From NCBI GenBank assembly GCA_964465315.1, contig CAYXIK010000007.1, positions 18,840 to 82,839 of the forward strand: a stretch of DNA of 64,000 bases, given 5' to 3'. The notes beneath the pieces were generated by a model. It was not told where the DNA came from. It did no database searches and worked only from the letters and a program-made list of their open reading frames with translations. This DNA comes from an uncultured Gemmatimonadaceae bacterium (GTDB lineage: Bacteria > Gemmatimonadota > Gemmatimonadetes > Gemmatimonadales > GWC2-71-9). Shown here piece after piece: positions 16,755 to 34,940 of this stretch; the stretch's first letter is position 1; the number at the start of each line of letters is the position of its first letter. The position numbers were made by a program, and so were the translations under genes.

Positions 16755-18191
16755 TCAATACCGCGGCAGCGATCGGTCCACGTTCACGGCCCACGCGTCG
16801 ATGCCGCCGCGCAGACTACGCACCTTCGAAAAGCCCGCGGCCTTCAGGATCTCCAGCGCCTTGAGCGAGCGCGACCCGTGATGGCAGTGGGTCACGATGT
16901 CCTGGTGACCGTCCAGCTCGCCGAGCCGGTCCGGTAGCTCGCTCAGCGGGATGAGCCGCGCACCATCGATGTGCGCGATCGCGTGCTCGTGCGGATCGCG
17001 TACGTCGATCACGAGCAAGTTCGGGTTGCGTTGCCATTCGTCCTTCAGCTGCTCGGCGCTGATCTCCACCCCTTCGTAGGACGGCTCGGCGCCGATGCCG
17101 CAGAACGCCTCATAATCAATCAGCTCGGTGATCGTGGGGCGACGGCCGCAGACCGGGCAGTCGGGATCCTTCTCGAGCCGCAGCTCACGGAATTGCAGCT
17201 TGAGGGCGTCGAACAACACCAGGCGTCCGATGAGCGGCTCGCCCGCGCCGAGGATCAGCTTGATAGTCTCCATCGCCTGGATCGAGCCGATGATGCCGGG
17301 TAGGACGCCAAGGACGCCCCCTTCCGCGCACGACGGGACCAGACCCGGCGGCGGGGGCTCCGCGTAGAGACAGCGGTAGCAGGGACCTCGCTTCGCGTGA
17401 AACACCGATGCCTGTCCCTCGAAGCGGAAAATGGAGCCGTAGACATTCGGCTTGTCGAGCAGGACGCACGCGTCATTCACGAGGTAGCGGGTCGGGAAGT
17501 TGTCCGTCCCGTCCGCCACGACGTCGAACTCACGGATGATGTCGAGAGCGTTCTCGGACGTCAGCCGGGTGTCGAACGGCTCGACCCGCACGTTCGGATT
17601 CAGATCGTGGATGCGCGCCGCCGCGGACTCGAGCTTGGACGTACCGACCGTGGAGGTGCCGTGCAGGATCTGCCGCTGCAGGTTGGTCTTGTCCACGACA
17701 TCGAAATCCACGATGCCGATGGTACCGACGCCAGCGGCCGCCAGATACAGGGCGGCCGGTGATCCCAGTCCCCCTGCCCCTACGAGCAGCACGCGCGCCG
17801 CCTTGAGCTTCTTTTGCCCTTCGACGCCCACGTCCGGGAGGATGAGATGGCGCGAGTAGCGCAGGATCTCTTCGTGCGACAATACGGGCGCCGCAGGCTG
17901 CGCCCCTACGGTAGCCGTCCCTCCCGCGATGCTTGGGATGATCGAGACCGTGTCGCCCGCTTTGACCGGCGTGTCGCGCTGGGCGAGCTGCCGGATATCG
18001 CGGTCGTTCACATACACATTGACAAAGCTGCGCAACCGGCCGTCCTCAGCAAAAAGATGCTGCTTCAACGTCGTGTGCTCACCGGTCAGCCGCTCGAGTA
18101 ACTCTCCCACGCTCCCGGCTTCGACCTGGAGGGCGTCGCGCCCGCCTACGAAGGGACGCAACGGCGTGGGGATCAGGACCGTCACCGCCAT
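16755..18191 (-). CDS. three-domain fusion: MoaD/ThiS/CysO-like beta-grasp sulfur carrier (ends ..IAGG), MoeB/ThiF/MoeZ-type E1-like adenylyltransferase, and a C-terminal rhodanese
   Basis: 478 aa. Residues 1-91 read MAVTVLIPTPLRPFVGG...GDTVSIIPSIAGG, with the Gly-Gly encoded at 17919-17924. Then LRYSRHLILPDVG...VLLVGAGGLGSPAALYLAAAG and CxxC pairs (CYRC, CPVC). The C-terminal rhodanese has the active-site loop THCHHGSRS. Confidence 0.85.
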   Translation of the reverse strand: MAVTVLIPTPLRPFVGGRDALQVEAGSVGELLERLTGEHTTLKQHLFAEDGRLRSFVNVYVNDRDIRQLAQRDTPVKAGDTVSIIPSIAGGTATVGAQPAAPVLSHEEILRYSRHLILPDVGVEGQKKLKAARVLLVGAGGLGSPAALYLAAAGVGTIGIVDFDVVDKTNLQRQILHGTSTVGTSKLESAAARIHDLNPNVRVEPFDTRLTSENALDIIREFDVVADGTDNFPTRYLVNDACVLLDKPNVYGSIFRFEGQASVFHAKRGPCYRCLYAEPPPPGLVPSCAEGGVLGVLPGIIGSIQAMETIKLILGAGEPLIGRLVLFDALKLQFRELRLEKDPDCPVCGRRPTITELIDYEAFCGIGAEPSYEGVEISAEQLKDEWQRNPNLLVIDVRDPHEHAIAHIDGARLIPLSELPDRLGELDGHQDIVTHCHHGSRSLKALEILKAAGFSKVRSLRGGIDAWAVNVDRSLPRY

Positions 18192-18625
18192 ACGACCTTC
18201 CGTTCCTCGTTGGTGATCTCCTCTTCCTCGAATATCCCACGATCGTCCGCGAGAACCCAGCTCTTCAGGTCGGCCGCCCTACCGCGTTCCACGCCAACGA
18301 TGACGTAGGAAAACCTGGGCCAGGCCTGCTCCCGGTCGAACGCCGAGGGCACCGGTGGATGATCGGGATGGGAATGATACACGCCGATCACGTCGAGACC
18401 GTCACGTTCCAGCCGCTCCTCGCCGCGCCTGAACGATTCCGGGTCGATCAAGTAACGATTGCGCGCCGAGTCGGTCCGCCGGTTCACGAGCGGCACCAGC
18501 TGAACCGCGACCTTGTCGTGCCCCTCGACACTCCCGCCGATCAAGCCACAGGCCTCCGCCGGGTAGTCCGCCTCGCCGTGCCGACGAATCGCCGATGCGT
18601 GTCTTGGATCGAGCACGAGTGTCAC
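18182..18625 (-). CDS. JAMM/MPN+ family metallopeptidase (Mec/CysO-peptidase-like)
   Basis: 147 aa. Carries the E (AEACGLIGG) and HSHPDHPPVPSAFD elements, which fit the JAMM motif E-x(n)-H-S-H-x7-S-x2-D. Confidence 0.85.
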   Translation of the reverse strand: MTLVLDPRHASAIRRHGEADYPAEACGLIGGSVEGHDKVAVQLVPLVNRRTDSARNRYLIDPESFRRGEERLERDGLDVIGVYHSHPDHPPVPSAFDREQAWPRFSYVIVGVERGRAADLKSWVLADDRGIFEEEEITNEERKVVWR

Positions 18626-19590
18626 GCGATCTCTCTCTCCCCCGTAAGCCTTCGGGGCTCGCTCAGGTAGCGGGTCCCCGAGTCCGGCGCCACGACGACG
18701 ACGACGTCGGACGATCGGACAGTCGCATGGTCGGACAGGACACGCTCCGCGGCCACGAGTGCCGCCCCCGTGGACCAGCCTACCAACAGTCCAGCTTCCC
18801 TGGCCAGCCGTCTGACGGCGTCCTCGCCGTCCTCCGTCGCCACGAACTCTGTCTGGTCCGCCAGTGCTGGATCGTAAATGCCGGGCACGATCGCGGTCGC
18901 CAGGTGCTTCAGTCCTTCGAGGCCGTGGAACGGCCCGTCGGGCTGCACGGCGACCAGCTCAATCTCTGGCTTCAATTCCTTTAACCGCCGACCGGCGCCC
19001 ATCATCGTGCCGGTGGTACCCAGCCCCGCCACGAAGTGCGTGACCCGGCCCGCCGTCTGGCGCCAGATCTCCTCGGCGGTCGTCACGTAGTGCGACCGGA
19101 CGTTGGCTGGATGGTTGTATTGATCCGCATACCAGTACCGCTCCGGCTCCGCAACCGCGAGCGCGCGAGCCGCCCGGATCGCTCCGTCCGACCCCTCGAG
19201 TGGATCCGTGAAAATGACCTCGGCTCCGTGCGCCTCGAGCAGTGCCTTCCGCTCGGCGCTCGCGTTGCGGGGGACACACACCGTCACGCCGATTCCCGCC
19301 GCGACCCCGAGGGTCGCGTACCCGATGGCGGTATTGCCGCTGGACGCGTCGAGGAGGCGCTTGCGGGGCAACTCGCCCCGCGCGATGCCGTCGCGAAGGA
19401 TGAACAACGCTGGACGGTCCTTGACGGAGCCGCTCGGGTTGAACCATTCACATTTCAGCAGGACGGTCCGACCGTGAGACAGTCGGACGGGCGTGAGCGG
19501 CGTATTACCGACCAGCGCCCAGAGCGCCGGCTCGGCAAACGTCTTGCTGCTCGCACATCCGACCGTTCGACGGTCCGCGGCCGTCTTCAT
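18622..19590 (-). CDS. cysM: PLP-dependent cysteine synthase (CysM/CysK family; by context a sulfur-carrier-thiocarboxylate-dependent CysM)
   Basis: Begins MKTAADRR and contains LVGNTPLTPV...KCEWFNPSGSVKDRPA...SSGNTAIG...GLGTTGTMMG. The ATG at 19588-19590 overlaps the rhodanese stop (ATGA). The upstream 166 aa of the track ORF are out of frame with the rhodanese gene. Confidence 0.85.
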   Translation of the reverse strand: MKTAADRRTVGCASSKTFAEPALWALVGNTPLTPVRLSHGRTVLLKCEWFNPSGSVKDRPALFILRDGIARGELPRKRLLDASSGNTAIGYATLGVAAGIGVTVCVPRNASAERKALLEAHGAEVIFTDPLEGSDGAIRAARALAVAEPERYWYADQYNHPANVRSHYVTTAEEIWRQTAGRVTHFVAGLGTTGTMMGAGRRLKELKPEIELVAVQPDGPFHGLEGLKHLATAIVPGIYDPALADQTEFVATEDGEDAVRRLAREAGLLVGWSTGAALVAAERVLSDHATVRSSDVVVVVAPDSGTRYLSEPRRLTGEREIA

Positions 19591-20438
19591 TCCGCTCCCT
19601 TCACAATCGGCGCACCGACCAGGTTCCCCCACTCCGTCCACGAGCCGTCGTAGTTGCGCACCTTCTTCACGCCCAACAGGTACTTGAGCGCGAACCACGT
19701 GTGGCTCGACCGCTCCCCGATGCGGCAATACGCGATCACTTCGTCCTTGCCATCGATCACCTTCGCGCCTTTGTACAGCTGCATCAGGTCCTCGTACGGC
19801 TTGAAGGTGCCGTCTTGAGCCACCGCCTGACTCCACGGAATGTTCTTCGCGCCCGGAATGTGTCCGGCCCGTTGCGCCGTCTCCGTCATGCCCGGCGGCG
19901 CAATGATTTCGCCGACGAATTCTGGTTTGGAGCGCACGTCGACGAGCGCCGTCTTCTTGGCTTTGAGCGCCTTTTCCACCTCCTGCCGCTTGGCGCGGAT
20001 CGACGCGTTCGCCTTCTTCGGGACCGGGTAGGTGGACCGCCGGACGGTCGCGCGGTCGGACACGAGCGGTCGACCTTCCGCGACCCACTTGGCCCGCCCG
20101 CCGTTCATGAGTTTCGCGTTCGTGTGCCCGTACAATTGCAGCAGCCAGAAGGCGAACGCCGCAAACCAGTTGTTATTGTCGCCGTAGAGAACCACCGTCG
20201 TCTTAGAAGTCACCCCGGCCTCGGAGAGCAGCTTGGCGAAGGCCGTTTTGTCCGGGATGTCCCGGCGCACAGGGTCGTTGAGCTGGGATTGCCAGTTCCA
20301 GCCCACAGCGCCGGCGACGTGGCCGGCATCGTACGCCGTCGTGTCCACGTCGACCTCGATCAGTCGGATGGCCGGATCGCTGAGGTGGGCAGCCACCCAG
20401 TCGGTCGACACGAGCGCCTCGGGATGCGCGTATGGCAC
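19587..20438 (-). CDS. two-domain rhodanese (thiosulfate/3-mercaptopyruvate sulfurtransferase)
   Basis: Contains LVSTDWVAAHL and the active-site loop YCRIGERSSHTWF. The track start is a TTG at 20450. A GTG at 20436-20438 has GGAGG 5 nt upstream and is preferred. Confidence 0.85.
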   Translation of the reverse strand: MPYAHPEALVSTDWVAAHLSDPAIRLIEVDVDTTAYDAGHVAGAVGWNWQSQLNDPVRRDIPDKTAFAKLLSEAGVTSKTTVVLYGDNNNWFAAFAFWLLQLYGHTNAKLMNGGRAKWVAEGRPLVSDRATVRRSTYPVPKKANASIRAKRQEVEKALKAKKTALVDVRSKPEFVGEIIAPPGMTETAQRAGHIPGAKNIPWSQAVAQDGTFKPYEDLMQLYKGAKVIDGKDEVIAYCRIGERSSHTWFALKYLLGVKKVRNYDGSWTEWGNLVGAPIVKGAE

Positions 20439-20513
20439 GGTTGCCTCCAATTCGGTTAAACCCGACAGTGCCAGTCGGGTTTCAGTTGAAAAAAAACAAT
20501 CGGGACGGCCGAA

Positions 20514-24052: not shown

Positions 24053-24385
24053 ATGGATGCCCAGGATCTCTCGCAGCATCTCGCCGCACGCGCGCGTTTC
24101 TCGGCGACCAAGATGACCAAGATCGACTGCTTCCGCTCCTCGCGGCTCCTGGTCGGTCTCAACTGCTTCGAGCCAGGACAGGAGCAGACGGTGCACACTC
24201 ATCCGGGCGCCGACAAATTCTATTTCGTTGTCAGTGGAAAGGCGAGGTTCGTCGTGGGCAACACGACGCTCGAGGCGGCCTCCGGGGACCTCATCCTCGC
24301 GCCTGAGGGTGTCCGGCACGGGGTGGAGCGCGCGCTCGAGCGAACGATCGTCCTGGTCGGCATCGCGCCCCCGCCGTCCGCATAG
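24053..24385 (+). CDS. cupin domain protein
   Basis: 110 aa, containing GQEQTVHTHPGADKFYFVVSGKARF...ILAPEGVRHGV (cupin motifs 1 and 2). An alternative ATG lies at 24113. Confidence 0.65.
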   Translation: MDAQDLSQHLAARARFSATKMTKIDCFRSSRLLVGLNCFEPGQEQTVHTHPGADKFYFVVSGKARFVVGNTTLEAASGDLILAPEGVRHGVERALERTIVLVGIAPPPSA

Positions 24386-24386
24386 A

Positions 24387-24929
24387 TCACTTCGTCGGCT
24401 CCACGCGCAGGCTGTCGTTGAAGCGATTGAAGTATTCGGTCATCCCGATGACCAGCGTGATCTCGACGATCTGCCCGTCGTCCCAGGCCGACCGGAGCCG
24501 ACCGTACAGCTCGTCCGTGACGTCGTGTCCCGACCGATGCATAACCTCCGCATACTCGAGCGCCGCCCGCCACCCGGGCTCGAGGGCCCCGATCGCTTGT
24601 CGTTTCCCGCGATCTTGGATCGCCTCGAGCAAGTCGGCGCTCGCACCCTTCTGTCCTGCCAGGACAGTGTGGGAATTGAGTCAGTAGCGGCACCTATTCA
24701 GGTGCGAGATCCGCACCCAGAGCAGCTCTTTGAGGAGCGGCGGCACCGTTCCCTCGTTCATCACCGTGCGGAAGTGCGCGATCAGGGTCCGCAGGTGCGG
24801 CGGGCGGAGCGCCACGGTGCGGAACATGTTCGGGATGTTCCCCCGCTCCTTGAGATACGTCTCGAAGATGGGTCGCACCGCTGGCGCCGCTTGCTCGGGC
24901 GTCAGTGGCGCGATGCGTGGCTTGGTCAT
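24387..24929 (-). CDS. AhpD-like/carboxymuconolactone decarboxylase (CMD) family protein with an in-frame TGA at 24681-24683. Candidate selenoprotein (C-x-x-U); alternatively a Cys-to-stop pseudogene.
   Basis: Track ORFs 24681..24929 and 24387..24632 are in the same frame. They are separated only by the TGA plus 16 sense codons. Read-through gives 180 aa: ...LLWVRISHLNRCRY-[TGA]-LNSHTVLAGQKGASADLLEAIQD... The TGA sits at the second Cys of the family motif C-x-x-C-x-x-x-H. Confidence 0.65.
24651..24667 (-). promoter_or_regulatory. hairpin 13 nt downstream of the in-frame UGA (SECIS-like candidate)
   Basis: The RNA reads UGA-CUCAAUUCCCACA-CUGUCCU-GGC-AGGACAG. This is a 7-bp stem with a G-containing apical loop, which can be widened to a 6-bp stem with loop UGGCA. 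Confidence 0.4.
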
Positions 24930-25801
24930 GTCGCCTCACCTCTCCGCTTGCCCCAGCCGATCTTGAAGACCTGCACCGCGGCCCGATAGCCGAGGTAGCG
25001 TACCATGGCGTAGACGCCGAGCACGGTGAGGAGCACCGCGGTATAGAACCGCCAGAGCAGCAGCATCGTGACTTGGCGCGATCCGAAATCGCCGGCGAAC
25101 CCGTTCAAGAACACCACCTCGAGCCCTCCGCCTCCTGAGGGAAGCGGCACGATGAGGGGCGCGTGGAGCAGCGCGAGTGCACCGAAGAACATTTGCCCGA
25201 ACGGCGGAGCGTGTGGCAGGCCCCAGGCGAGCGCCGGGAGGATGAGCGCCCGTGCGATCACACTGACCATGGTGAGCGCCGCCCCCGCGGCGAGCGCCCA
25301 CCGCGGAGCGCGGCGTACGTGCGCCCAAGCCACCCGCCACTGGCGGCGGACGCGATGGCGCACGAACCCCGCGCGGGCCAACCGTTGGAGCAGGTATACG
25401 ACGATCAGCACGAGCAGTGCGACGACCTCGACACTCACCAGCTCTCCCGCGCGATGGCGGTGGAGCCAGGCGGCCGCGGCATCCCGCCAATCGGGCACGT
25501 AGTAGACGAAGAGCGCCGCTGCGGCGATCAAGAAGACGGGCCATTCGGATGCCACCTCCACGCCGATCGCCACGATGGCCGTCACCGGTCGCAGCCCCGC
25601 CTCGGTGAGGCCCAGGAAGCGCGCCGGCTCACCCCCCAGACGGTTGGGAGTCAGCTGTGATGCAGCTTCGCCGTAAAGATTGAGCCGAAACGCGTCGTCG
25701 AAGGAAAGCCGGCCTCCCGCGGTCCACACGGCGAGCTGGATCCGCCAGGCGCGGACCACGCAGTCGATGGCAAGCAGCACCAGGGAGAAGAGGTGGCCCA
25801 C
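24926..25801 (-). CDS. polytopic membrane protein, lysylphosphatidylglycerol-synthase-TM/UPF0104 (flippase-like) family, tentative
   Basis: 291 aa with multiple transmembrane segments. Contains AFRLNLYGEAASQLTPNRLGGEPARF, typical of the family. Confidence 0.55.
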   Translation of the reverse strand: MGHLFSLVLLAIDCVVRAWRIQLAVWTAGGRLSFDDAFRLNLYGEAASQLTPNRLGGEPARFLGLTEAGLRPVTAIVAIGVEVASEWPVFLIAAAALFVYYVPDWRDAAAAWLHRHRAGELVSVEVVALLVLIVVYLLQRLARAGFVRHRVRRQWRVAWAHVRRAPRWALAAGAALTMVSVIARALILPALAWGLPHAPPFGQMFFGALALLHAPLIVPLPSGGGGLEVVFLNGFAGDFGSRQVTMLLLWRFYTAVLLTVLGVYAMVRYLGYRAAVQVFKIGWGKRRGEAT

Positions 25802-25807
25802 GCCGGA

Positions 25808-25996
25808 TCAGTCGGAGCAGTCACCCAAGGGGTAAATGAAGCCGCAGTTCGGGCAGGGGTTCTTGCAGCCCCACAGCCGCGGCAGCACCTCGGCGCCGCA
25901 CCGTAAGCACGTCGCCCGTGGCCTAGCCGAGCCGGTAGGCGCCGGTGAGGAAGGGATTGGTGTGGCGCTCTCGGCCCACCGTGGTTTCGGGTCCAT
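25808..25996 (-). CDS. small four-Cys zinc-ribbon-like ORF (hypothetical)
   Basis: 62 aa, ending CLRCGAEV...CKNPCPNCGFIYPLGDCSD. Its first 74 nt overlap the 3' end of the MBL gene. No alternative start exists after the MBL stop. Confidence 0.3.
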   Translation of the reverse strand: MDPKPRWAESATPIPSSPAPTGSARPRATCLRCGAEVLPRLWGCKNPCPNCGFIYPLGDCSD

Positions 25997-26561
25997 GACC
26001 GCTGTACACGATGGTCGAATCGGGGAGCGTAAGCAACTCGCGCTCGATGCTCCGGATCAGCGTCTCCAGGTCGCCCCCGGGCAGGTCTGTGCGACCGATC
26101 GAACCCTGGAACAGGACGTCGCCAGTAAACACGACGCCCTGGCCCTCGAACACGACACTTCCGGGCGAATGTCCCGGCGCGTGGCGCACCCGAAACTCGA
26201 GGTTCCCGACCGAGAGGACATCTCCGTGCTCCAGGGCGCGGTCGGGTTCGGGCAACGCCTCAGCGCGCAGGCCGAACGCAAAGGCTTGCTCGAGAACGTG
26301 ATCGTAGAGGACGCGATCGGCGGGATGCACGCACACGGGAGCCCGCGTGTCCGCCTTGAGACGGGGAACGCCGAGCACATGATCGATGTGCGCGTGCGTC
26401 AGCCAGATTCCGACGGGCTGGACGCCAGCGGCCGCGAGCTTGTGCGCGATCAAGCCGGCTTCCTCACCCGGGTCGATGATCGCACAGGCGCCGCTCGGCT
26501 CGTCGATCACAAAGTAACAGTTCTCCGCGAACTGCCCATTCGGGATCTGCACCACGCGCAT
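25923..26561 (-). CDS. MBL-fold metallo-hydrolase (glyoxalase II-like)
   Basis: 212 aa with THAHIDHVLG (the HxHxDH motif). Also contains HAPGHSPGS and the GD...GR motif. Confidence 0.85.
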   Translation of the reverse strand: MRVVQIPNGQFAENCYFVIDEPSGACAIIDPGEEAGLIAHKLAAAGVQPVGIWLTHAHIDHVLGVPRLKADTRAPVCVHPADRVLYDHVLEQAFAFGLRAEALPEPDRALEHGDVLSVGNLEFRVRHAPGHSPGSVVFEGQGVVFTGDVLFQGSIGRTDLPGGDLETLIRSIERELLTLPDSTIVYSGHGPETTVGRERHTNPFLTGAYRLG

Positions 26562-26574
26562 GGTGGCGAGCCGC

Positions 26575-27552
26575 CTAGTCCGTTTGCCGCATGGCGGTGA
26601 GGTACTTCTCCACCGCGATCGCCGCGGTGGTCGCGTCGCCGACGGCGGTGGTGATCTGGCGGGTGAGCTGGCTGCGCACGTCGCCCGCCGCGAACAAGCC
26701 GGGGATCGAGGTCATCATGCGGTCGTCAGTCACGAAATAGCCATTCGCGTCGTGCTTCGCATGGCCCTCGACGAGACCGGAGTTAGGCTGGAAGCCGATG
26801 AAGATGAAAACGCCCCCCACCGTTAGCGTCGAGTGTTCGCCCGACACCGTGTCCTCGAGGACGAGGCCGTCGGTGCCCTTCGCCGTCCCGGTGATTTCTA
26901 GCACCTTCTTGTTCCAGATGACCTCGATCTTAGGATTTGCAAAGGCCCGCTGCTGCAAAATCTTCGATGCGCGGAAACGATCGCGGCGGTGCACGATGTA
27001 GACCTTCGCGGCGTATCGCGTCAGGTAATCGGCCTCTTCCACGGCGGCGTCCCCGCCCCCGATGACGGCCAGAATCTCACCCTTGAAGAAAGCCCCATCG
27101 CACACGGCACAGTACGACACGCCCTTCCCCGCGTGCTCCTTCTCGCCCGGCACGCCGAGCTTCACCGGCGTGCCGCCAGCGGTGAGGATAACGGCCGGCG
27201 CGCGGTACATGTGCCCATGGGCGGTCGCGACATCGAACCAGCCGTCCGATGCCTGGCGGACCTTCTCCACCGTATCGGTGACGAGCTGGGCGCCGAACTT
27301 CTTCGCGTGCTCCGCCATTTTTTGCGCGAGCTCCCACCCCTTGATGCTCTCGAACCCGATGTAGTCTTCGATGAGATCGGTGTTCAAGAGCTCGCCACCG
27401 GGTGCACCCCGCTCGATCGTGAGCCCCTTGAGCATGCCCCGGCCTACGTACATCGCCGCGCAGAGGCCCGCCGGCCCTGCTCCAACGATGATCACATCGT
27501 AGCCGTTGGTCGCGCGATCAGTCATTCGCTCGCCATTCCAGTCGTGGGGCAT
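26575..27552 (-). CDS. trxB: thioredoxin-disulfide reductase
   Basis: Contains YDVIIVGAGPAGLCAAMY, the redox centre CAVCDG, and GGGDAAVEEA. An alternative start at 27525 (MTDRATNGYD) would remove the overlap with the DUF309 gene. Confidence 0.9.
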   Translation of the reverse strand: MPHDWNGERMTDRATNGYDVIIVGAGPAGLCAAMYVGRGMLKGLTIERGAPGGELLNTDLIEDYIGFESIKGWELAQKMAEHAKKFGAQLVTDTVEKVRQASDGWFDVATAHGHMYRAPAVILTAGGTPVKLGVPGEKEHAGKGVSYCAVCDGAFFKGEILAVIGGGDAAVEEADYLTRYAAKVYIVHRRDRFRASKILQQRAFANPKIEVIWNKKVLEITGTAKGTDGLVLEDTVSGEHSTLTVGGVFIFIGFQPNSGLVEGHAKHDANGYFVTDDRMMTSIPGLFAAGDVRSQLTRQITTAVGDATTAAIAVEKYLTAMRQTD

Positions 27553-27874
27553 CTTCCTGCCCCGCCAGAGCGCTCGCCAGGCGCGCGCGAAATGTCACGG
27601 TCTCGAATGCCACATCGGGGCGCTGCGGGCCCTCGAGCTTCTCCAACGCGCCAGCCCCGACGACCGCGACGCCGTGACGGTTCCCCCGCTCCCGATGCAG
27701 CAGCGCGGCCGCGCCCTGGATCAATCCCTGCCACACGCGAGCCGCGTCCTCGTCGCCGTCGCTAATAATAGAACGCCAGACGGTTTCCAGCGCTTCGTGG
27801 GCGAGCCAGTACTCACCGGAGTTGAACCAGGCGCGGGCGCTGGAGAGCGTTGCGTGGCGCTCGTCAGGGGTCAC
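27518..27874 (-). CDS. DUF309 domain protein
   Basis: GTG start at 27872-27874, overlapping the upstream stop (GTGA). Contains ARAWFNSGEYWLAHEALETVW...WQGLIQGAAALLHRERGN, the DUF309 signature. Confidence 0.6.
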   Translation of the reverse strand: MTPDERHATLSSARAWFNSGEYWLAHEALETVWRSIISDGDEDAARVWQGLIQGAAALLHRERGNRHGVAVVGAGALEKLEGPQRPDVAFETVTFRARLASALAGQEDAPRLEWRAND

Positions 27875-28650
27875 GCGGCCCCGATCCTCAGCAAGTTCAG
27901 CGCGCCATGGCAGGCACTGATGGTCCCCACCAGCACGGCGGTGGCCGCGCCACTCTCGCCCGCCTCTTGCACCAACGCATCGCCCTCGAGCACCGCGTCG
28001 ACCGCGAACGTGCCGACGCCGAAGACGTGATGACGGCACACGAACAGGGCCGGCCCGTGCACCGCCTCCCCTGCCCCGCGCAACTGAGCTGCCAGCGCGC
28101 GCACCGCGTCCCCCATCTCCCAGGTGCGCGTGCTGCCGATGGCCGGGCACACCGCGGGCTCGATGCAGTGGGTCGGACAGATCCAGTCGGCGAATGACAC
28201 GTAGCGCGTTCCGTCCGGAAGCGCGGCGGTCCGGTCATACGGCGTGTCCAACGTCCCCGGCACCTCCGCAACCTCGACCGACCGTCCCGGCCACCGCGCG
28301 CGCGCACGCGCGAGCACCCACTGAAACATGAGGTGCGGCATATGAGGTGATGGCACGATGTAATCGCGTGGGGCCGCCGCATCCGCGCCGCTCGCGCCGG
28401 CTCCGCCGAGAAACTCGTGAAAGAATTCGGTCCAGTCACGCGTGACGAACGCGCGGTCGGACGCCTCACCCAGCTCGACGCGCGCTCGGCAGGCGGCGTC
28501 GCGGTCGACGACGATGACCCGGCGATACCGGGCCTTGCGCCGGTCCCGCGCCTTCGCGAGCTGTCTGGCGTAAAACGTCCCGTAGCACCCACCCCCGACG
28601 ATGATCACGTCGCGCATCACGACGCCGTCGGACGGCCCGGTGTTAGACAT
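27871..28650 (-). CDS. uncharacterised Rossmann (FAD/NAD(P)-binding-like) protein with a Cys-rich CPTHCIEPAVCP motif
   Basis: 259 aa. The N-terminus VIIVGGGCYGTFYARQL is a dinucleotide-binding fingerprint. I recognised no family for the remainder. Confidence 0.5.
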   Translation of the reverse strand: MSNTGPSDGVVMRDVIIVGGGCYGTFYARQLAKARDRRKARYRRVIVVDRDAACRARVELGEASDRAFVTRDWTEFFHEFLGGAGASGADAAAPRDYIVPSPHMPHLMFQWVLARARARWPGRSVEVAEVPGTLDTPYDRTAALPDGTRYVSFADWICPTHCIEPAVCPAIGSTRTWEMGDAVRALAAQLRGAGEAVHGPALFVCRHHVFGVGTFAVDAVLEGDALVQEAGESGAATAVLVGTISACHGALNLLRIGAA

Positions 28651-29410
28651 CGCCCCCGGTGACAGGTAGGATCTCGCCGGTCACGGCTCGCGCTTCGTCG
28701 CTCGCGAGGTAGAGGACCGCCGCCACCAACTCGTCGAGCTCGACCCACCGGACCTTCGCGCCCGTCATCTGGGCGAGGTTGTCGCTCGTTTTCATGGTGC
28801 CGGGCGCGACCGCGTTGACCCGTATCCCGTCGTCGCGGAGCTCGCGCGCGAGCGCGCGCGTAAGGCCGGCCACCGCCGCCTTGGCGGCCGTGTAGATCGC
28901 CATCTGGTTCTGTGGCTTCAAGACGGCGACCGAAGCGAAGTTGACGATGGCCCCGCCTCCCCGCGCGCGCAGCGCCGGGATCGCCGCCTGGGACACGTAG
29001 AACGTGGTCTTTACGTTGATCGCCAGCTCGCGCTCGAGCCGGTCGGGGGTCAGATCGGTCGCGGGGCCGAAGCTCACGAGTCCGCCCGCGACGTTCACCA
29101 CCACATCCAACCCACCGTAGCGCTCGCCCGCGGCGGCCACTGCCCGACGAGCCACATCGGGGGTGGTGAGGTCACCCGCCACCGGATGGACCACGAAGCC
29201 CACGGACCCGAACTCCTTCGCCCGCTCCGCAAGCCCCCCTTCGTTCACGTCCGCGATCACGAGCCGCGCGCCCGCCCGCCCGAAGCCCTGGGCGACCGCA
29301 TGCCCGATCTGACCGACCCTGCCCACGCCGGTGACGAGGGCGACCTTGCCGCGGTAGTCAGGAGGCACGCGCGACGATCTCATCGACCGGTGGGGCGCCA
29401 CGGCGTGCAA
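28643..29410 (-). CDS. short-chain dehydrogenase/reductase (SDR)
   Basis: 255 aa. Contains KVALVTGVGRVGQIG, NVAGG and the catalytic YTAAKAAV motif. Confidence 0.85.
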   Translation of the reverse strand: MHAVAPHRSMRSSRVPPDYRGKVALVTGVGRVGQIGHAVAQGFGRAGARLVIADVNEGGLAERAKEFGSVGFVVHPVAGDLTTPDVARRAVAAAGERYGGLDVVVNVAGGLVSFGPATDLTPDRLERELAINVKTTFYVSQAAIPALRARGGGAIVNFASVAVLKPQNQMAIYTAAKAAVAGLTRALARELRDDGIRVNAVAPGTMKTSDNLAQMTGAKVRWVELDELVAAVLYLASDEARAVTGEILPVTGGDV

Positions 29411-29798
29411 AGGCGACCATGCCGTCTCGGTTCACGACGTAGACGGAGCGCTGGATGCCCCGGTCGTCGTCCTTCAAGGCATGGTACGCACGCGCGATCG
29501 TCCGGTCCGGGTCGGACAGCAGTGGGAAATTGAAGTGCAGCTTCCGTACGTAGCCGGCATGGCTGTCGATGCCGGCCGGGTTCACGCCGAAGGGCTGGAT
29601 GCCCGCTCGCTGGAACTTTGCCATCTCGTCGCGCACGGCGGAGAGTTGGCGGTTTCACCCAGGCGTGTTGTTGCCCGGATAGAACACCAGGGCGACGGCG
29701 GTGGTCTTCAAGAGGTCGGCAAGACGGTACATATTTCCGTCAGATGCTTGTGCGGCGAAGCCTGGCGCCTTGCTGCCGATCTCCAACAGATCGCTCAT
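29358..29798 (-). CDS. Bcp-type peroxiredoxin (AhpC/TSA family) with an in-frame TGA at 29655-29657 in place of the peroxidatic Cys. Candidate selenoprotein; alternatively a pseudogene.
   Basis: My own translation from the ATG at 29796-29798 gives MSDLLEIGSKAPGFAAQASDGNMYRLADLLKTTAVALVFYPGNNTPG-[TGA]-NRQLSAVRDEMAKFQRAGIQPFGVN...LLSDPDR... This aligns with the Bcp motif FYPKxxTPGCTxQ. The ATG overlaps the PHP gene stop (ATGA). The track shows only the 92-aa C-terminal ORF. Confidence 0.7.
29624..29644 (-). promoter_or_regulatory. hairpin starting 11 nt downstream of the peroxiredoxin UGA (SECIS-like candidate)
   Basis: The RNA reads UGA-AACCGCCAAC-UCUC-CGC-[CGUGC]-GCG-AC-GAGA. It has a 4-bp lower stem, a 2-nt bulge, a 3-bp upper stem and an apical loop containing GU. 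Confidence 0.35.
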
Positions 29799-30751
29799 GA
29801 CGGACCCTGACGATCCTGTGTGACGGGTTCACGCAACACCGCGGCGCGACGGTGCTCGAGCTGCTCGAGCCATGCCATCGGAATGTCTAGTCCGCCGAGC
29901 GCCGCGTGGGATTCTCCGAGCTCGGCGTCTCCGTGCCAATCGGAGCCGCCGCTGATGCTGAGAGAGAGACGGTCGGCGATCGCCGTGAGCCGACGCTCGA
30001 TGCCGGGCGAGTGGCTCGGGTGCCGGACCTCGAGACCGTCGAGACCCTGCGCCTGAAACTGTCGAATCTGGGCTTCGGTCCCGTGGTCCCCCAAGTGCGC
30101 GGCAACGGCGATCCCCCCGACTTCGTGGACCAGCGCTGTCACCTGCTGCAGCGTCGGCAGGGGCTTCTCGACGTAGGCGGGCCGGCCCCGACCCAGGTAG
30201 CGCACAAAGGCCTCGTTCATGTCGGCGCTCACGCCCTGCTCGATCAGCACTCGGGCTACGTGCGGACGGCCAAGAGCCCCGCCGTCCGCGGCGCGTTCGA
30301 CGTCCGCGAGCTCGATGTCGATGCCCAAGCGCTGCAGGTGTCCCACGATCTGCTCCGCGCGGCGCCGGCGCGCCGCCCGAGTGCCGGTCAGGAACTCCTC
30401 GAGGCGCGCCGACCCCGGCGGCAGGAAGTACCCCAGGAGATGCAGCTCACCCCAGGGTGCCCGCACGCTGAACTCAGACCCCGAAACAACGCGAACCCCG
30501 AGCGCCTCACCCGCGCGAGTGGCTTCGGGAACGCCGTCGGTCGTGTCGTGATCGGTGAGGGCGATGGCCGCGAGTCCGGCCGCTCGGGCCAGCCTGACTA
30601 CCTCGGCCGGCGGGTACTCGCCGTCCGAGGCGGTCGAATGGCAATGCAGATCAACGCGCGCCGTATTCTCCCTCCGGCGCTGTCCATGCCGGCTGTGACT
30701 CGTGGAACAACCGCACCACCGTTTGCTCGGGCATCTCCGCGAACGCGGCAT
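29795..30751 (-). CDS. PHP-domain metal-dependent phosphoesterase (start uncertain)
   Basis: Contains ARVDLHCHSTASDGEYPPAEVV...ALTDHDT... The conserved N-terminus begins near 30653, where there is no ATG, GTG or TTG. The nearest in-frame ATG is at 30751, inside the upstream gene. Confidence 0.7.
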   Translation of the reverse strand: MPRSRRCPSKRWCGCSTSHSRHGQRRRENTARVDLHCHSTASDGEYPPAEVVRLARAAGLAAIALTDHDTTDGVPEATRAGEALGVRVVSGSEFSVRAPWGELHLLGYFLPPGSARLEEFLTGTRAARRRRAEQIVGHLQRLGIDIELADVERAADGGALGRPHVARVLIEQGVSADMNEAFVRYLGRGRPAYVEKPLPTLQQVTALVHEVGGIAVAAHLGDHGTEAQIRQFQAQGLDGLEVRHPSHSPGIERRLTAIADRLSLSISGGSDWHGDAELGESHAALGGLDIPMAWLEQLEHRRAAVLREPVTQDRQGPS

Positions 30752-30920
30752 CCGGACTGCGGTTCCCGACCGGCGAGTAACGCGTGAAACGGCGCCGCCG
30801 TTCGGGCCCGGTACCCTGCTCGAACACCAGGCCGAACTCATCGCGCCCGTACACCGTCACGCGACCCGAGGGGAACACCCGCCACGGGGCCCCGTCCACG
30901 ACGATCGTCCGTCGCGCCAT
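30651..30920 (-). CDS. hypothetical protein (89 aa)
   Basis: Very high third-position GC in this frame, unlike the overlapping PHP-frame extension. I recognised no family. Confidence 0.5.
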   Translation of the reverse strand: MARRTIVVDGAPWRVFPSGRVTVYGRDEFGLVFEQGTGPERRRRFTRYSPVGNRSPDAAFAEMPEQTVVRLFHESQPAWTAPEGEYGAR

Positions 30921-30927
30921 GGTCTCT

Positions 30928-31242
30928 CTACGCCTCGCTGCCGGCCGCGAGCGACACTTCGGTCCACAGCTCCCACGCGTCGGGCGCGTAGGTGCCGAGG
31001 CTCTGCAACCGTCTCTCGAGCTTGATCTCTTCGGGCAGACGCGACGCCTGCGCCCGGTGCGACATCTCGGTCTGGCTCTCCGAGAATTCCGTGAACAGCT
31101 GGGGATCCTTGGCGTTGCGGAAGATCCAGATGCGCTGACCGCGCGCCTCGGCGAACTGACACAGCTCCCGGAGGGTGGCGAGGTAGTCGGCCTCGTTGGT
31201 GGGGGGCACCCGCACCCGTGCTGCCGTGAGCACCTTGGCCAT
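30928..31242 (-). CDS. hypothetical protein (104 aa)
   Basis: Begins MAKVLTAARVRVPPTNEADYLATLRELCQF. It follows the E2 gene after 2 nt. I recognised no family. Confidence 0.5.
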   Translation of the reverse strand: MAKVLTAARVRVPPTNEADYLATLRELCQFAEARGQRIWIFRNAKDPQLFTEFSESQTEMSHRAQASRLPEEIKLERRLQSLGTYAPDAWELWTEVSLAAGSEA

Positions 31243-31244
31243 GG

Positions 31245-32606
31245 CTAGATCGCTCCCTCGGGGAAGTCCTCGAGCGCGCGCTTCACGTCGGCGAGGAACC
31301 GGTCGGCGTCCGCACCGTCCACGACGCGGTGGTCGTACGACATCGACAGCATCCCCATCGTCCGTATCGCGATCGTGTCCGTGCCGTCGGGGAGCGTCAC
31401 GACCTTGGGGCGCTTCTCGATCGCGCCGACGCCTAAGATCGCCACCTGCGGCTGGTTGATGATCGGCGCGCCCGCGTACGACCCGAACACGCCCGGGTTC
31501 GTAATCGTGAACGTGCCGCGCTGGATCTCGTCGGGCGACAGCTTCTTGCTGCGGGCCCGTTCGCCGAGATCGTTGATCGCGCGGGCCAACCCGGACAGCG
31601 AGAGCTCGTCCGCGCGCTTCACCACGGGAACGATCAGCCCCCAGTCGAGGGCCACGGCGATCCCGATGTTCACGTCGCGGCGGTAGATGATATTGTCGCC
31701 GGAAACGGCGGCGTTCACCACGGCGTGCTTCCGGAGGTTCTCAGCAGCGATCTTCGCGATGAACGCGAGGTACGTCAGGCTCACTCCGCGCTCGGCATAT
31801 GCGGCCTTATGCTTGCGGCGCAGCTCCGCCACCCGGCTGTAGTCGACCTCGAAGAAGCTCGTCACGTGCGCCGACGTGCGGCGCGACATGATCATGTGAT
31901 CCGCGGTGATCTTGCGGATCTTCGAGAACGGCTCGACCCGGTCGCCGGGCCAGGGTTCGACGATCGGATGTGCGACGGGGCCGGACGGCGCGGGAGCGGG
32001 GAGCCGGGAGCCGGGAGCGGTCGGGGCGGGCACGCCGCGCTCGATGAACCCCAGAATGTCCTGCTTGGTGACCCGCCCGGCGAAACCGCTTCCCGGAATC
32101 GTCGAGATATCCACCTGATGCTCGGCGGCGATCTTCCGGACCAGGGGTGTGGACTTGCGCCGCAGGCGCTCCTCGGCGGTCTCAACGCCCCCGTCCCCCT
32201 TCGGGGGAACGGGGGAGGACGGAGAAGGACGGGGGAGGACGGGGGAGGTTGCCGCCGGTGTCGGCGCCGGCTTCGGAGCTGGCGGCGACGACGCAACCGC
32301 AGCCCCCGAAGCCGCGGGCGCCCGCTGGGCTGCTGCGGAGGGGGCTGCGGTCGAGGCGGCGCCCTTGTCGGTCTCGATCACCGCCACGAGCGTCTGTACC
32401 GGGACGGTCTGTCCCTCCTGGACCTTGATCTCGGCCAGAACGCCGGCGGTGGGCGCGGGGATCTCCGCGTCCACCTTATCGGTCGAGATCTCGAACAGCG
32501 GCTCGTCCCGCTTCACGTCGTCGCCGAGCTTCTTGAGCCACTTGCTCAACGTACCTTCGGCGATCGACTCGCCCATTTGGGGCATTAACACGTCAACGCG
32601 CGCCAT
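31245..32606 (-). CDS. 2-oxoacid dehydrogenase E2 component (dihydrolipoamide acyltransferase)
   Basis: 453 aa. Lipoyl domain contains MPQMGESIAEGTLSKW...ISTDKVDAEIPAP. It also has Ala/Pro linkers, a peripheral subunit-binding domain, and a catalytic region with SYDHRVVDGA. Confidence 0.9.
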   Translation of the reverse strand: MARVDVLMPQMGESIAEGTLSKWLKKLGDDVKRDEPLFEISTDKVDAEIPAPTAGVLAEIKVQEGQTVPVQTLVAVIETDKGAASTAAPSAAAQRAPAASGAAVASSPPAPKPAPTPAATSPVLPRPSPSSPVPPKGDGGVETAEERLRRKSTPLVRKIAAEHQVDISTIPGSGFAGRVTKQDILGFIERGVPAPTAPGSRLPAPAPSGPVAHPIVEPWPGDRVEPFSKIRKITADHMIMSRRTSAHVTSFFEVDYSRVAELRRKHKAAYAERGVSLTYLAFIAKIAAENLRKHAVVNAAVSGDNIIYRRDVNIGIAVALDWGLIVPVVKRADELSLSGLARAINDLGERARSKKLSPDEIQRGTFTITNPGVFGSYAGAPIINQPQVAILGVGAIEKRPKVVTLPDGTDTIAIRTMGMLSMSYDHRVVDGADADRFLADVKRALEDFPEGAI

Positions 32607-32615
32607 GACCGCTCC

Positions 32616-33596
32616 TCAATACGCCGCGAGCCATCTCGCAGCTTTCACAATGTCTTCCGTCTGCGGCAGCACGAAGTCCTCGAGCGTCGGTGCATACGGG
32701 AGCGGCACGTCGTGCGCCGTCACCCGCATGATCGGGCCGTCGAGCCAGGCGAACGCCTGCTCGTTGATGCGCGCCGCGATCTCGCCCGCAACGCCGCCGG
32801 TCCGCGTGTCCTCGTGCACGATCAAGACTTTGTTCGTCTTCTGCACCGTCCGCATGATCGCCGCGTCGTCCATCGGCAGGAGGGTGCGCAAGTCGAGCAC
32901 CTCGACGGACAGGCCGTCGTCCTTGGCCAGCTGCTCGGCGGCCTCGAGCGACTTCCACACCGTGGCCCCGTAGGTGACGACGGACAGGTCCTTCCCCTCG
33001 CGGGCGAGGCGCGCCTCGCCGATCGGCGTGAGGACCTCCTCCCCGTCCGGGAGCGCCTCCTTGATGCGACGGTACAACCACTTATGCTCGAGGTAGATCA
33101 CCGGATCGTCGTCGCGAATAGACGCCTTGATCAACCCCTTCGCGTCCCGCGCCGTGGCGGGATAGACGATCTTCAGGCCGGGCGTGTGAAAGAAGGCGGC
33201 CTCGGGATTCTGCGAGTGAAACGGTCCACCCCGTACGTAGCCGCCACACGGTCCGCGCACCACGATCGGCGTCGCGAGGCCCGCCCGGTAGCGCGCCGTC
33301 GCCACGTAGTTGGTGAGCATGTCGTAGGCGCAGGAGATGAAGTCGATGAACTGCATCTCCGCGACGGGTCGCATGCCCATGTGGGCCGCACCGGCCGCCG
33401 CGCCGACGATCGCCGCCTCCGATATCGGCGTGTCGATGACCCGCTGCTCCCCAAACTTCTTTGCGAACCCCTCGGTAACCTTGAAGGCGCCGCCGTATGG
33501 TCCCACGTCCTCGCCCAGGATGAACACGCGGGGGTCGCGCTCCATTTCCTCCCAGAGCCCCTGGCGCAGCGCCTCGAGGTAGGTGACGTCCGCCAT
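32616..33596 (-). CDS. 2-oxoacid dehydrogenase E1 component beta subunit
   Basis: Begins MADVTYLEALRQGLWEEMERDPRVFILGEDVG. The start ATG at 33594-33596 overlaps the E1-alpha stop by 1 nt. Confidence 0.9.
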   Translation of the reverse strand: MADVTYLEALRQGLWEEMERDPRVFILGEDVGPYGGAFKVTEGFAKKFGEQRVIDTPISEAAIVGAAAGAAHMGMRPVAEMQFIDFISCAYDMLTNYVATARYRAGLATPIVVRGPCGGYVRGGPFHSQNPEAAFFHTPGLKIVYPATARDAKGLIKASIRDDDPVIYLEHKWLYRRIKEALPDGEEVLTPIGEARLAREGKDLSVVTYGATVWKSLEAAEQLAKDDGLSVEVLDLRTLLPMDDAAIMRTVQKTNKVLIVHEDTRTGGVAGEIAARINEQAFAWLDGPIMRVTAHDVPLPYAPTLEDFVLPQTEDIVKAARWLAAY

Positions 33597-34651
33597 CACA
33601 GGCCCCGATACCAGTGCCGGGGGGCTGCCGGCGGATCGACGTACACGCCGTCCAGCGCGGACTCGGGCGGCGGGAGCGCGTCGTCCACGCACGCGTCGGT
33701 CGCCTCGTCGATCTCCGCCGTGACCCGTTCGTCGATCTCCTTGAGCTCACGGCCCTCCGCCCATTCGTTTTGCACCAGCTGCCTCACGTAGCGGTCCACC
33801 GGATCGTTTTCCTTCGCCCACCAGTCGAGCTCGTCCTTGGGCACGTAATGCTGGTCGTCGTGCTCGGCGTGACCTCTGCGCCGATAGGTCTTCACCTCGA
33901 TCAAGTGCACGCCGTGCCCGCGACGCGCGCGCTCCACGGCGAACTTCGTCGCCTCGTAGACCGCGAGCACGTCGTTCCCGTCGACGGTGGTCCCCGGAAT
34001 CCCGTAGCCTTTGGCCTTCTCGGCCAGATCCTTGACGGCGAACTGCTTCTCGGGCGGCGTCGAATAGGCCCAGCGGTTGTACTCCGCGATCACGACGAGC
34101 GGCACCTTCTGCACCGCGGCGAAGTTCAGACCCTCGTGGAACGTGCCCGTGGAGGTCGCCCCGTCTCCGATGTACACGAGGCCTACACGCGGCTCACCCC
34201 GCAGCTTGAACGTGAGCGCAATCCCCGCCATCACCGGGACCATGTCGCCCAGGTGGGAGATCTGTCCCAAGTAGCCCTTCTCTAAGTCGTTGAAGTGCAC
34301 ATTGAGCTCGCGACCCTGCGTGGGGCTCCCGGCCTTGGCCATGTACTGGCGTAAGATCTCGATCGGCTGTGCGCCCATGACGAGCATCGAGCCCAGGTTG
34401 CGGATCAGCGGCGAAAGGATGTCCTGGTTACGCCCCCGCTCGAGGGCGTACGCCGTCGCGACGGACTCCCCCTCCTGACCCAGGGAGCGAAACAAGCCGC
34501 CGATCACCTTGCTTTGGCGGTACAACGCCGTCAGCCGCTCCTCGAGGGTCCGCGTGAGCCGGAGGTAGCGATAGATTTCGAGCAGGTGGTCGCGGGCGAG
34601 GCCCGCCGGGATGGGCGGCGACTGTCGGGCGGGAGCGGCGCGCGATACCAT
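33596..34651 (-). CDS. 2-oxoacid dehydrogenase E1 component alpha subunit (TPP-dependent)
   Basis: 351 aa. Contains YIGDGATSTGTFHEGLNFAA, the TPP-binding motif region. Confidence 0.9.
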   Translation of the reverse strand: MVSRAAPARQSPPIPAGLARDHLLEIYRYLRLTRTLEERLTALYRQSKVIGGLFRSLGQEGESVATAYALERGRNQDILSPLIRNLGSMLVMGAQPIEILRQYMAKAGSPTQGRELNVHFNDLEKGYLGQISHLGDMVPVMAGIALTFKLRGEPRVGLVYIGDGATSTGTFHEGLNFAAVQKVPLVVIAEYNRWAYSTPPEKQFAVKDLAEKAKGYGIPGTTVDGNDVLAVYEATKFAVERARRGHGVHLIEVKTYRRRGHAEHDDQHYVPKDELDWWAKENDPVDRYVRQLVQNEWAEGRELKEIDERVTAEIDEATDACVDDALPPPESALDGVYVDPPAAPRHWYRGL

Positions 34652-34658
34652 GACGTAA

Positions 34659-34664
34659 ATTATA
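34659..34664 (-). promoter_or_regulatory. perfect TATAAT hexamer 7 nt upstream of the E1-alpha ATG (leaderless-type -10 element)
   Basis: The minus strand reads ...CGC-TATAAT-TTACGTC-ATG. There is no Shine-Dalgarno sequence, and I found no convincing -35. Confidence 0.4.
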
Positions 34665-34724
34665 GCGGGCGTGAAACTTGGCGGGACGGGGCGGCCAAAG
34701 CAAGCTCCTGGTGGAGGAGGAACG

Positions 34725-34940
34725 ATGGCGACGTTGAAGTTGCGCGTGACGGGGATGACGTGCGGTCACTGCCGGATGAAGGTCGAGCACGCGTTGAAGG
34801 GAGCAAGCGGCGTCTACTCCGCGATCGTCGACCTGCAGGCGGGAGAGGCGGAGGTGGACTTCAATGACGACGCGGCGACCGCTCAGGAGCTCATCGCGGC
34901 GGTCGAGCAAGCCGGATACGGCGCGCGCGTCGCGGGCTAG
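34725..34940 (+). CDS. copZ: heavy-metal-associated (HMA) copper chaperone
   Basis: Begins MATLKLRVTGMTCGHCRMKVEHAL. GGAGGAGG lies upstream of the ATG at 34725. Confidence 0.8.
   Translation: MATLKLRVTGMTCGHCRMKVEHALKGASGVYSAIVDLQAGEAEVDFNDDAATAQELIAAVEQAGYGARVAG

Follow-up and report, generated by a model that had tools for sequence, protein, structure and literature searches.

A probable selenocysteine codon in the redox motif of an AhpD-like gene conserved among Gemmatimonadota

We analysed a 64,000-nucleotide stretch of DNA (the window) from an uncultured Gemmatimonadaceae bacterium (contig CAYXIK010000007.1, assembly GCA_964465315.1). A minus-strand gene at 24387..24929 of this window very probably encodes a 180-amino-acid AhpD-like (carboxymuconolactone-decarboxylase [CMD] fold) thiol/selenol oxidoreductase whose second redox residue in the C-x-x-C-x3-H motif is selenocysteine (Sec, U). 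The in silico evidence covers the in-frame TGA, its conservation across species, translation downstream of it, a covarying hairpin, and the AhpD-like fold. Feature coordinates are collected in Table 1.

Two minus-strand open reading frames (ORFs), 24681..24929 and 24387..24632, share one frame and are separated by the TGA at 24681-24683 and 16 sense codons. The joint frame opens at the ATG at 24929 and closes at the TGA at 24387-24389, with the TGA between the two ORFs as its sole interruption, and reading through yields a 180-residue product (...VRISHLNRCRY-[TGA]-LNSHTVLAGQKG...) that reads ...LLWVRISHLNRCRY-U-LNSHTVLAGQKGAS... around the site. The TTG start of the second ORF, 16 codons past the TGA, is an artefact of an ORF lister that requires a start codon. 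Codon-position GC contents (GC1/GC2/GC3) of 0.63/0.46/0.89 and 0.68/0.42/0.82 in the two halves show the coding pattern of a 67% GC genome. Apart from this site, TGA acts as a regular terminator in the genome, ending the AhpD-like gene itself, the gene upstream of it and many other genes of the window, so recoding would be specific to codon 83.

When Cys was placed at the TGA, the product scored 37 bits against the Pfam CMD profile (PF02627, cut-off 23) and 40.4 bits against the AhpD core domain (TIGR00778, cut-off 27.8), and it is therefore a member of this superfamily. Its active-site motif, C80-R-Y-U83-L-N-S-H87, corresponds to C-x-x-C-x3-H with the TGA as the second Cys, and CMD/AhpD relatives in the PDB (2ijc, 7xw1, 2oyo and 6k40) align their own C-x-x-C-x3-H motifs here, again with the TGA on the second Cys. 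A Cys orthologue 80% identical to the window protein (P0001) was modelled with a pLDDT of 96 as an all-helical AhpD-like fold, with TM-scores of 0.85-0.88 to 2pfx, 6k40, 3c1l, 2prr and 2oyo, "peroxidase-related" AhpD-like structures that include Deinococcus radiodurans AhpD; in this model, helix 81-93 begins at the CxxC/U motif. A preliminary description made from the letters of the window had proposed a single frame with a 180-residue product, a TGA in place of the second Cys of an AhpD/CMD motif with a downstream His, and coding GC bias in both halves, and the translation, the alignments, the profile matches and the base composition bear out all of these proposals.

The TGA is conserved well beyond the window. 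A genome scan that took one genome per species returned 66 loci carrying the gene, all from Gemmatimonadota metagenome-assembled genomes (MAGs) except one from Anaerolineae. TGA occupies exactly the same codon in 63 of these species-representative genomes, all of them Gemmatimonadota MAGs, in genes whose products are 49-89% identical to the window's, and Cys codons were present only in L034 (TGC), L041 (TGT) and L066 (TGC). Apart from L055, which has one additional in-frame stop, the TGA-form genes are open to a normal stop (62/63). The additional stop of L055 lies in the C-terminal half of its CMD gene (497-1054) in a MAG with 5x coverage and is probably an assembly error or the mark of a decaying copy. 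A protein search gave a matching picture, with full-length 180-residue Cys-type homologues at 69-80% identity to the window protein and at least nine distinct closer fragments (82-95% identity), all ending ...VRISHLNRCRY, together with two C-terminal fragments (P0086 and P0091) that begin just past the TGA, at LARQKG.... The Cys homologues read N(Q)CRYCLNSH, and the TGA falls in their second-Cys column. In this column, which the preliminary description had singled out for checking, a minority of homologues have Cys (TGC/TGT), and 63 orthologues of different species have TGA.

Selection acts on both sides of this codon. Among 33 length-matched Sec forms, the median dN/dS was 0.109 upstream and 0.155 downstream of the TGA, as expected under purifying selection, at a dS of ~0.9, which is near saturation. 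The purifying selection downstream of the TGA indicates that the downstream half is translated.

The hairpin CUGUCCU-GGC-AGGACAG, with a 7-bp stem and a GGC loop, starts 13 nt past the TGA and had been put forward from the outset as a candidate bacterial selenocysteine insertion sequence (SECIS). In an alignment of 64 Sec-form sequences (63 distinct) without indels, 99.5% of the cells of the 7-bp stem were paired and the GGC loop was invariant. Three of the seven pairs show compensatory U-A to C-G changes (pairs 21-35, 23-33 and 25-31, in 24, 27 and 12 sequences, respectively), and these switches occur in differing combinations between clades, with a U-G intermediate in L030, which argues for repeated events rather than a single inherited change. 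When the 3' arm was slid by 1-3 nt as a control, pairing dropped to only 35-61%, and RNAalifold recovered the same stem de novo. The published bacterial SECIS (bSECIS) model calls for a loop of 3-9 nt, an upper stem of 4-16 bp, G at the first two loop positions, a distance of 16-37 nt from UGA to loop, and a minimum free energy of at most -7.5 kcal/mol (PMC13188914); the window hairpin fits this model on every count, with a 3-nt loop, a 7-bp stem, GG, 20 nt and -8.3 kcal/mol for the stem alone. Because 63 of 66 genomes share the TGA at an identical codon and the stem carries compensatory changes, the observation lies far beyond chance.

Codon choice in this region follows the state of codon 83. 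Sec forms build the stem with codons that are rare in the genome (ACT, TTG/CTG, GCA, AGA/GGA and CAG), while Cys forms encode a similar peptide (TVLARR / TALAQR) with GC-rich codons, and their homologous 17-mer pairs at 4/7 positions. These alignments mark the hairpin as an RNA element that is conserved and covaries in the TGA forms, is specific to them, and has been lost in Cys-form relatives. A 3-bp lower stem may be an optional part of it, with 86% of cells paired and zero compensatory change. The Anaerolineae locus, a Cys form, carries a different strong GC-rich hairpin (CGCGCC-GCUG-GGCGCG) at a comparable distance past its TGC, which is possibly due to chance in GC-rich DNA.

Several results weigh against reading the gene as a selenoprotein. 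The hairpin taken by itself is not unusual in GC-rich DNA (z = -1.22 for the folding of a 71-nt region); however, single-sequence fold statistics are uninformative in such DNA, and since the Cys forms also fold into strong but non-homologous structures, counts of homologous pairs were used instead of energies. No Rfam SECIS family matched the hairpin at the gathering threshold, and permissive E-values around the site gave a noise match to a miRNA. Bacterial SECIS elements are short and lineage-specific, so we place little weight on this negative. The best NCBIfam matches of the protein, "YciW-related (seleno)protein" and "peroxidase-related enzyme", each fell under their own cut-off, and the named (seleno)protein subfamilies were all missed: TIGR01926 (peroxidase-related enzyme) at 63.5 vs 81.8, NF053654 (YciW-related (seleno)protein) at 77.9 vs 310, and NF041238 (AhpD_rel_CFYUT) at 30.8 vs 175. 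On these scores, the window protein is related to the three subfamilies but outside them as now defined. No tRNA-Sec, selA, selB or selD was found in the window or in the 1.08 Mb made up of the window and related loci: ARAGORN gave only tRNA-Leu on the window and 60 related loci, NCBIfam or Pfam profiles revealed no sel genes among the 20 large ORFs of the window, and tblastn with E. coli SelA, SelB and SelD queries had zero matches in the 1.08 Mb. Missing sel genes are expected for a 64-kb slice of a multi-megabase genome, and the decoding machinery is one that we infer, with a second conserved gene of the TGA/SECIS type in the window lending it indirect support. The biochemical function, finally, would be that suggested by the fold and the gene neighbourhood only.

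A single base separates TGA from TGC, and the Cys-type relatives are close enough that the gene could be taken for a pseudogene, or its TGA for a TGC that was miscalled in the sequencing or assembly of an ordinary Cys-type AhpD-like gene. This is hardly credible given that the same TGA recurs in several metagenome fragments and in 63 genomes that were assembled independently, that the window copy has no other stops or frameshifts and is under purifying selection downstream, and that the covarying hairpin is specific to TGA forms; the conservation in 63 genomes effectively refutes it. The preliminary description would have given up its reading had close relatives carried TGC while this copy showed other disabling mutations. 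TGC relatives do exist, but they are outnumbered by the TGA form, and the window copy is free of disabling mutations. A truly split gene, in which an 82-residue peptide ends at the TGA and a re-initiated C-terminal peptide joins it by non-covalent assembly, would account for gene callers annotating two pieces (P0086 and P0091 start at LARQKG...) and for the conservation of both halves. However, no start is conserved past the TGA: the first in-frame start of the window copy is the TTG 16 codons on, other species have CTG, ATG or TGG at this codon, and the TTG found within the hairpin of many relatives is CTG in the window. The 16 intervening codons, including the one for the catalytic His87, are conserved like the rest of the gene, a split would separate Cys80 and His87 onto different chains and lose the reactive residue, and the Cys forms are single 180-residue chains, all of which makes a split gene very improbable.

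The hairpin and the conserved TGA show recoding but are silent on the identity of the amino acid, so the UGA could be recoded via the SECIS-like hairpin with a residue other than Sec being inserted, whether Cys by a SelB-like factor and a Cys-charged tRNA(Sec)-like tRNA or whichever residue enters by hairpin-stimulated near-cognate read-through. Cys-recoding systems with a SelB-like factor and a tRNA(Sec)-like tRNA have been described. Nevertheless, we regard insertion of another residue as unlikely here, since, with Cys inserted, selection would have no grounds to maintain a costly signal in 63 species for a protein that one TGA-to-TGC change would also yield, and changes from TGA to a Cys codon do occur among the relatives. 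Furthermore, CxxU in AhpD-like proteins and TxxU in peroxiredoxins are the documented places of Sec (PMC2398784).

If codon 83 is a selenocysteine codon, its UGA would not be read as a stop, and the hairpin 13 nt downstream would act as a bacterial SECIS, recruiting SelB, loaded with GTP and Sec-tRNA(Sec), as the UGA occupies the A site of the ribosome, such that Sec would be inserted at residue 83. We infer the actual insertion of Sec, its dependence on SelB and the biochemical role, with the decoding steps taken from established bacterial Sec biology. A selenenylsulfide couple of Cys80 and Sec83, with His87 nearby, could then move reducing equivalents or reduce peroxides, and the AhpD-like protein would most plausibly work with its conserved neighbours, a Sec-peroxiredoxin and thioredoxin reductase. 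Sec usually takes the place of a catalytic redox Cys, and in Mycobacterium tuberculosis AhpD the motif's second Cys acts as the attacking nucleophile, activated via the nearby His; Sec at this nucleophile position would fit the usual rule. Other chemistries are also known in the AhpD-like fold, namely those of the Bmp8 debrominase and gamma-CMD.

In a neighbor-joining tree, which is approximate, the close Cys forms branched inside the Sec-form clade as two or three groups, and the next outgroup clade was all Cys. This topology suggests an early acquisition of Sec in the Gemmatimonadota orthologue group, followed by several reversions to Cys that each cost the gene its hairpin, making the TGA form apparently the ancestral as well as the majority state, although the direction of change is itself deduced from the rough tree. 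Reversion from Sec to Cys with hairpin loss matches a pattern that has been given in general terms (PMC1794560).

Some database entries depart from the motif or from the full length. Three distant family members (P0070, P0092 and P0116) have the degenerate motifs C-E-Y-E, T-Q-Y-C and S-R-Y-C, and two of the three retain only the second Cys, the position that is Sec in the window protein. The 103-residue NCBI protein P0035 joins its first ~60 residues to its last ~43 with the TGA region missing, as if the gene model had "spliced out" the in-frame stop.

The second TGA-for-Cys case that the preliminary description had noticed in the same gene string proved to be a peroxiredoxin (Prx)-like gene 5 kb from the AhpD-like gene. 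Its product belongs to the AhpC-TSA family (106.6 bits) and is BCP/PrxQ-like (NF006960, 64.7 bits), and the TGA lies at the peroxidatic Cys, where every one of the 43 orthologues found in related loci also has a stop. Columns 16-36 past the TGA, which span the hairpin of this gene, are identical in 44 sequences, synonymous sites included, except for one bulged base. TxxU is a listed pattern for Prx selenoproteins (PMC2398784). In L034, L041 and L067-L070, the AhpD-like gene is in the Cys form (TGC/TGT) and has lost its hairpin, yet the TGA-type Prx is retained; on this gene content, the organisms evidently retain the recoding system, and they look like cases of Sec-to-Cys replacement of one gene inside Sec-decoding organisms.

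The two genes belong to a conserved gene string (window 24387-34765, minus strand; L001-L064) in the order E1alpha/E1beta/E2 - PHP phosphatase - Prx(U) - [SDR - AF_1314_C-like] - TrxB - metallo-beta-lactamase (MBL) - [LPG_synthase_TM-like] - AhpD-like(U) - [cupin] - aspartate ammonia-lyase. A distant Gemmatimonadota clade lacks the LPG_synthase_TM-like gene and has Prx(U), TrxB, MBL and AhpD-like(U) immediately side by side. TrxB lies upstream of the CMD gene in most loci with a long enough flank, in both clades, and is a candidate source of reducing power. The Prx ATG overlaps the TGA of the upstream PHP gene (ATGA), and the AhpD-like gene overlaps the membrane-protein gene by the same four nucleotides in the window, L067 and L069; the latter overlap suggests co-transcription and translational coupling.

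Table 1. Features of the selenoprotein gene region in the window (bits are profile scores).
Feature	Position	Strand	Details and evidence
AhpD-like/CMD-family gene, probable selenoprotein, complete	24387..24929	-	180 codons plus TGA terminator 24387-24389; sequence, PF02627, TIGR00778, PDB alignment, P0001 model
In-frame TGA, probably read as selenocysteine (U83)	24681..24683	-	63/66 genomes; fragments ending HLNRCRY; dN/dS downstream 0.155
Putative bSECIS upper stem, 7 bp, invariant GGC apical loop	24651..24667	-	loop 20 nt past UGA; pairing 99.5%, covariation, RNAalifold
Possible 3-bp lower stem (CCC 24671-24673 with GGG 24646-24648)	24646..24673	-	minimum-energy fold -13.0 kcal/mol; weakly supported
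Small cupin gene between selenoprotein and aspartate ammonia-lyase genes	24053-24385	+	opposite strand
Membrane-protein gene (LPG_synthase_TM / flippase-like), upstream	24926..25801	-	TGA overlaps selenoprotein ATG (ATGA)
MBL-fold hydrolase, GloB-like but under family cut-off; conserved neighbour	25923..26561	-	
TrxB, thioredoxin-disulfide reductase; conserved neighbour	26575..27552	-	TIGR01292 358.9 bits vs cut-off 343.45
Prx/BCP-like peroxiredoxin, putative second selenoprotein gene	29358..29798	-	FYPGNNTPG-U-NRQL (TxxU); TGA 29655-29657; SECIS-like hairpin 29625-29645

In three loci (L016, L030 and L031), both the strand and the side of all neighbours are reversed with respect to the CMD gene, and the selenoprotein gene alone appears to have been inverted in place between the membrane-protein and aspartase genes. 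The spacing to the lyase gene in other loci is either ~920-1080 or ~545-750 nt, and these two classes imply that the cupin gene may exist in only a subset of loci.

Selenoproteins of this family are known. AhpD-like 1 (COG2128) and AhpD-like 2 (pfam02627), both with CxxU, and Prx with TxxU were described from the Sargasso Sea and Global Ocean Sampling (GOS) metagenomes and are carried in current reviews (PMC1088965, PMC2398784, PMC13188914), as the preliminary description had assumed in citing a metagenomic precedent, and one GOS read held a Prx-like 1 gene beside an AhpD-like 2 gene (PMC2398784). The window protein shares with these metagenome selenoproteins (AhpD-like 1; AhpD-like 2 / CMD-like; the TIGR01926 type) the PF02627 domain, the Sec position in CxxU, close pairs of Sec and Cys homologues, and a SECIS inside the ORF directly downstream. 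Unlike them, it belongs to a lineage under the NCBIfam subfamily cut-offs that is clade-wide and apparently ancestral in soil and sediment Gemmatimonadota, with fixed synteny to a Sec-peroxiredoxin and TrxB. Its hairpin resembles the bSECIS of the E. coli fdhF type in being an in-ORF stem-loop that follows closely on the UGA and has a small apical loop starting with G-G, but it has no primary-sequence similarity to any known SECIS element and no conserved bulged U was identified in it; its loop has the minimal size of 3 nt, which would grow to 5 nt on opening of the closing U-A/U-G pair. The gene is almost certainly a genuine selenoprotein gene of an already established family and leaves the known mode of selenoprotein action unchanged. 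We found no substantive report of selenoproteins in Gemmatimonadetes/Gemmatimonadota in the searchable literature, where the clade-wide presence in this phylum, the fixed association with Sec-peroxiredoxin and TrxB, and the covariation series of a minimal SECIS appear to be undescribed.

The association of an AhpD-like protein with a peroxiredoxin recalls the system of M. tuberculosis, in which AhpD serves as the reductant of AhpC and receives its own electrons from lipoamide on the E2 protein DlaT, together with Lpd. M. tuberculosis AhpD has the same fold family and CxxCxxxH motif as the window protein, and the gene string of the window likewise includes peroxiredoxin and 2-oxoacid dehydrogenase E2 genes. 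The window Prx, however, is BCP/PrxQ-like rather than AhpC (TIGR03137, 39 bits vs 272) and is not adjacent to the AhpD-like gene in the window, and the conserved reductase neighbour is TrxB instead of lpd, with no lpd identified. The window protein is also a single-domain 180-residue "peroxidase-related" type whose closest structures are 2pfx, 6k40, 3c1l and 2oyo. It therefore falls outside the AhpC-AhpD-DlaT-Lpd system, and the mycobacterial likeness is one of functional analogy only.

By association only, the gene neighbourhood suggests a peroxide-reducing pathway shared by the AhpD-like protein, the Sec-peroxiredoxin and TrxB. A bolder and rather doubtful extension is that Gemmatimonadota carry an ancient, fixed two-selenoprotein module for peroxide defence, Prx(U) - TrxB - MBL hydrolase - AhpD-like(U), beside the 2-oxoacid dehydrogenase E1/E2 genes, in which the peroxidase and its AhpD-like partner would both depend on selenium and the AhpD-like selenoprotein would serve as an electron adaptor between TrxB or lipoamide and the Sec-peroxiredoxin. 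If this were true, systematic use of Sec in oxidative-stress defence would have gone unrecognised in a soil phylum that is largely aerobic and high in GC.

The main value of these findings lies in correcting gene annotation in a soil bacterial phylum; they are of moderate interest, the biology not being new in kind. Standard gene callers split the AhpD-like and Prx genes in two in every Gemmatimonadota genome examined, so that across a major soil phylum the annotation of two conserved redox enzymes is either wrong or absent. Unnamed "bacterium" genomes were left out of the largest selenoprotein catalogue to date (PMC13326102), which for this reason likely misses most of these MAGs. The finding implies that Sec decoding is an old and widespread trait of Gemmatimonadota. 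The Cys forms provide a natural series of Sec-to-Cys replacements with simultaneous SECIS loss that is useful for studying how selenoproteins are lost, and the compact 17-nt SECIS with its natural compensatory variants could serve engineering.

Scans of the window for further genes with an in-frame TGA, based on GC content by frame, returned only boundaries of adjacent genes or antisense frames; these scans are insensitive, the Prx gene having escaped two of them and the CMD gene one, and they leave room for further selenoprotein genes. Elsewhere on the minus strand of the window (16755-20450), a ThiS-ThiF/MoeB-rhodanese fusion (16755-18191) lies beside a pyridoxal phosphate-dependent (PALP) enzyme and a tandem-rhodanese protein, in what looks like a cluster for sulfur-carrier type thiolation or cysteine synthesis.

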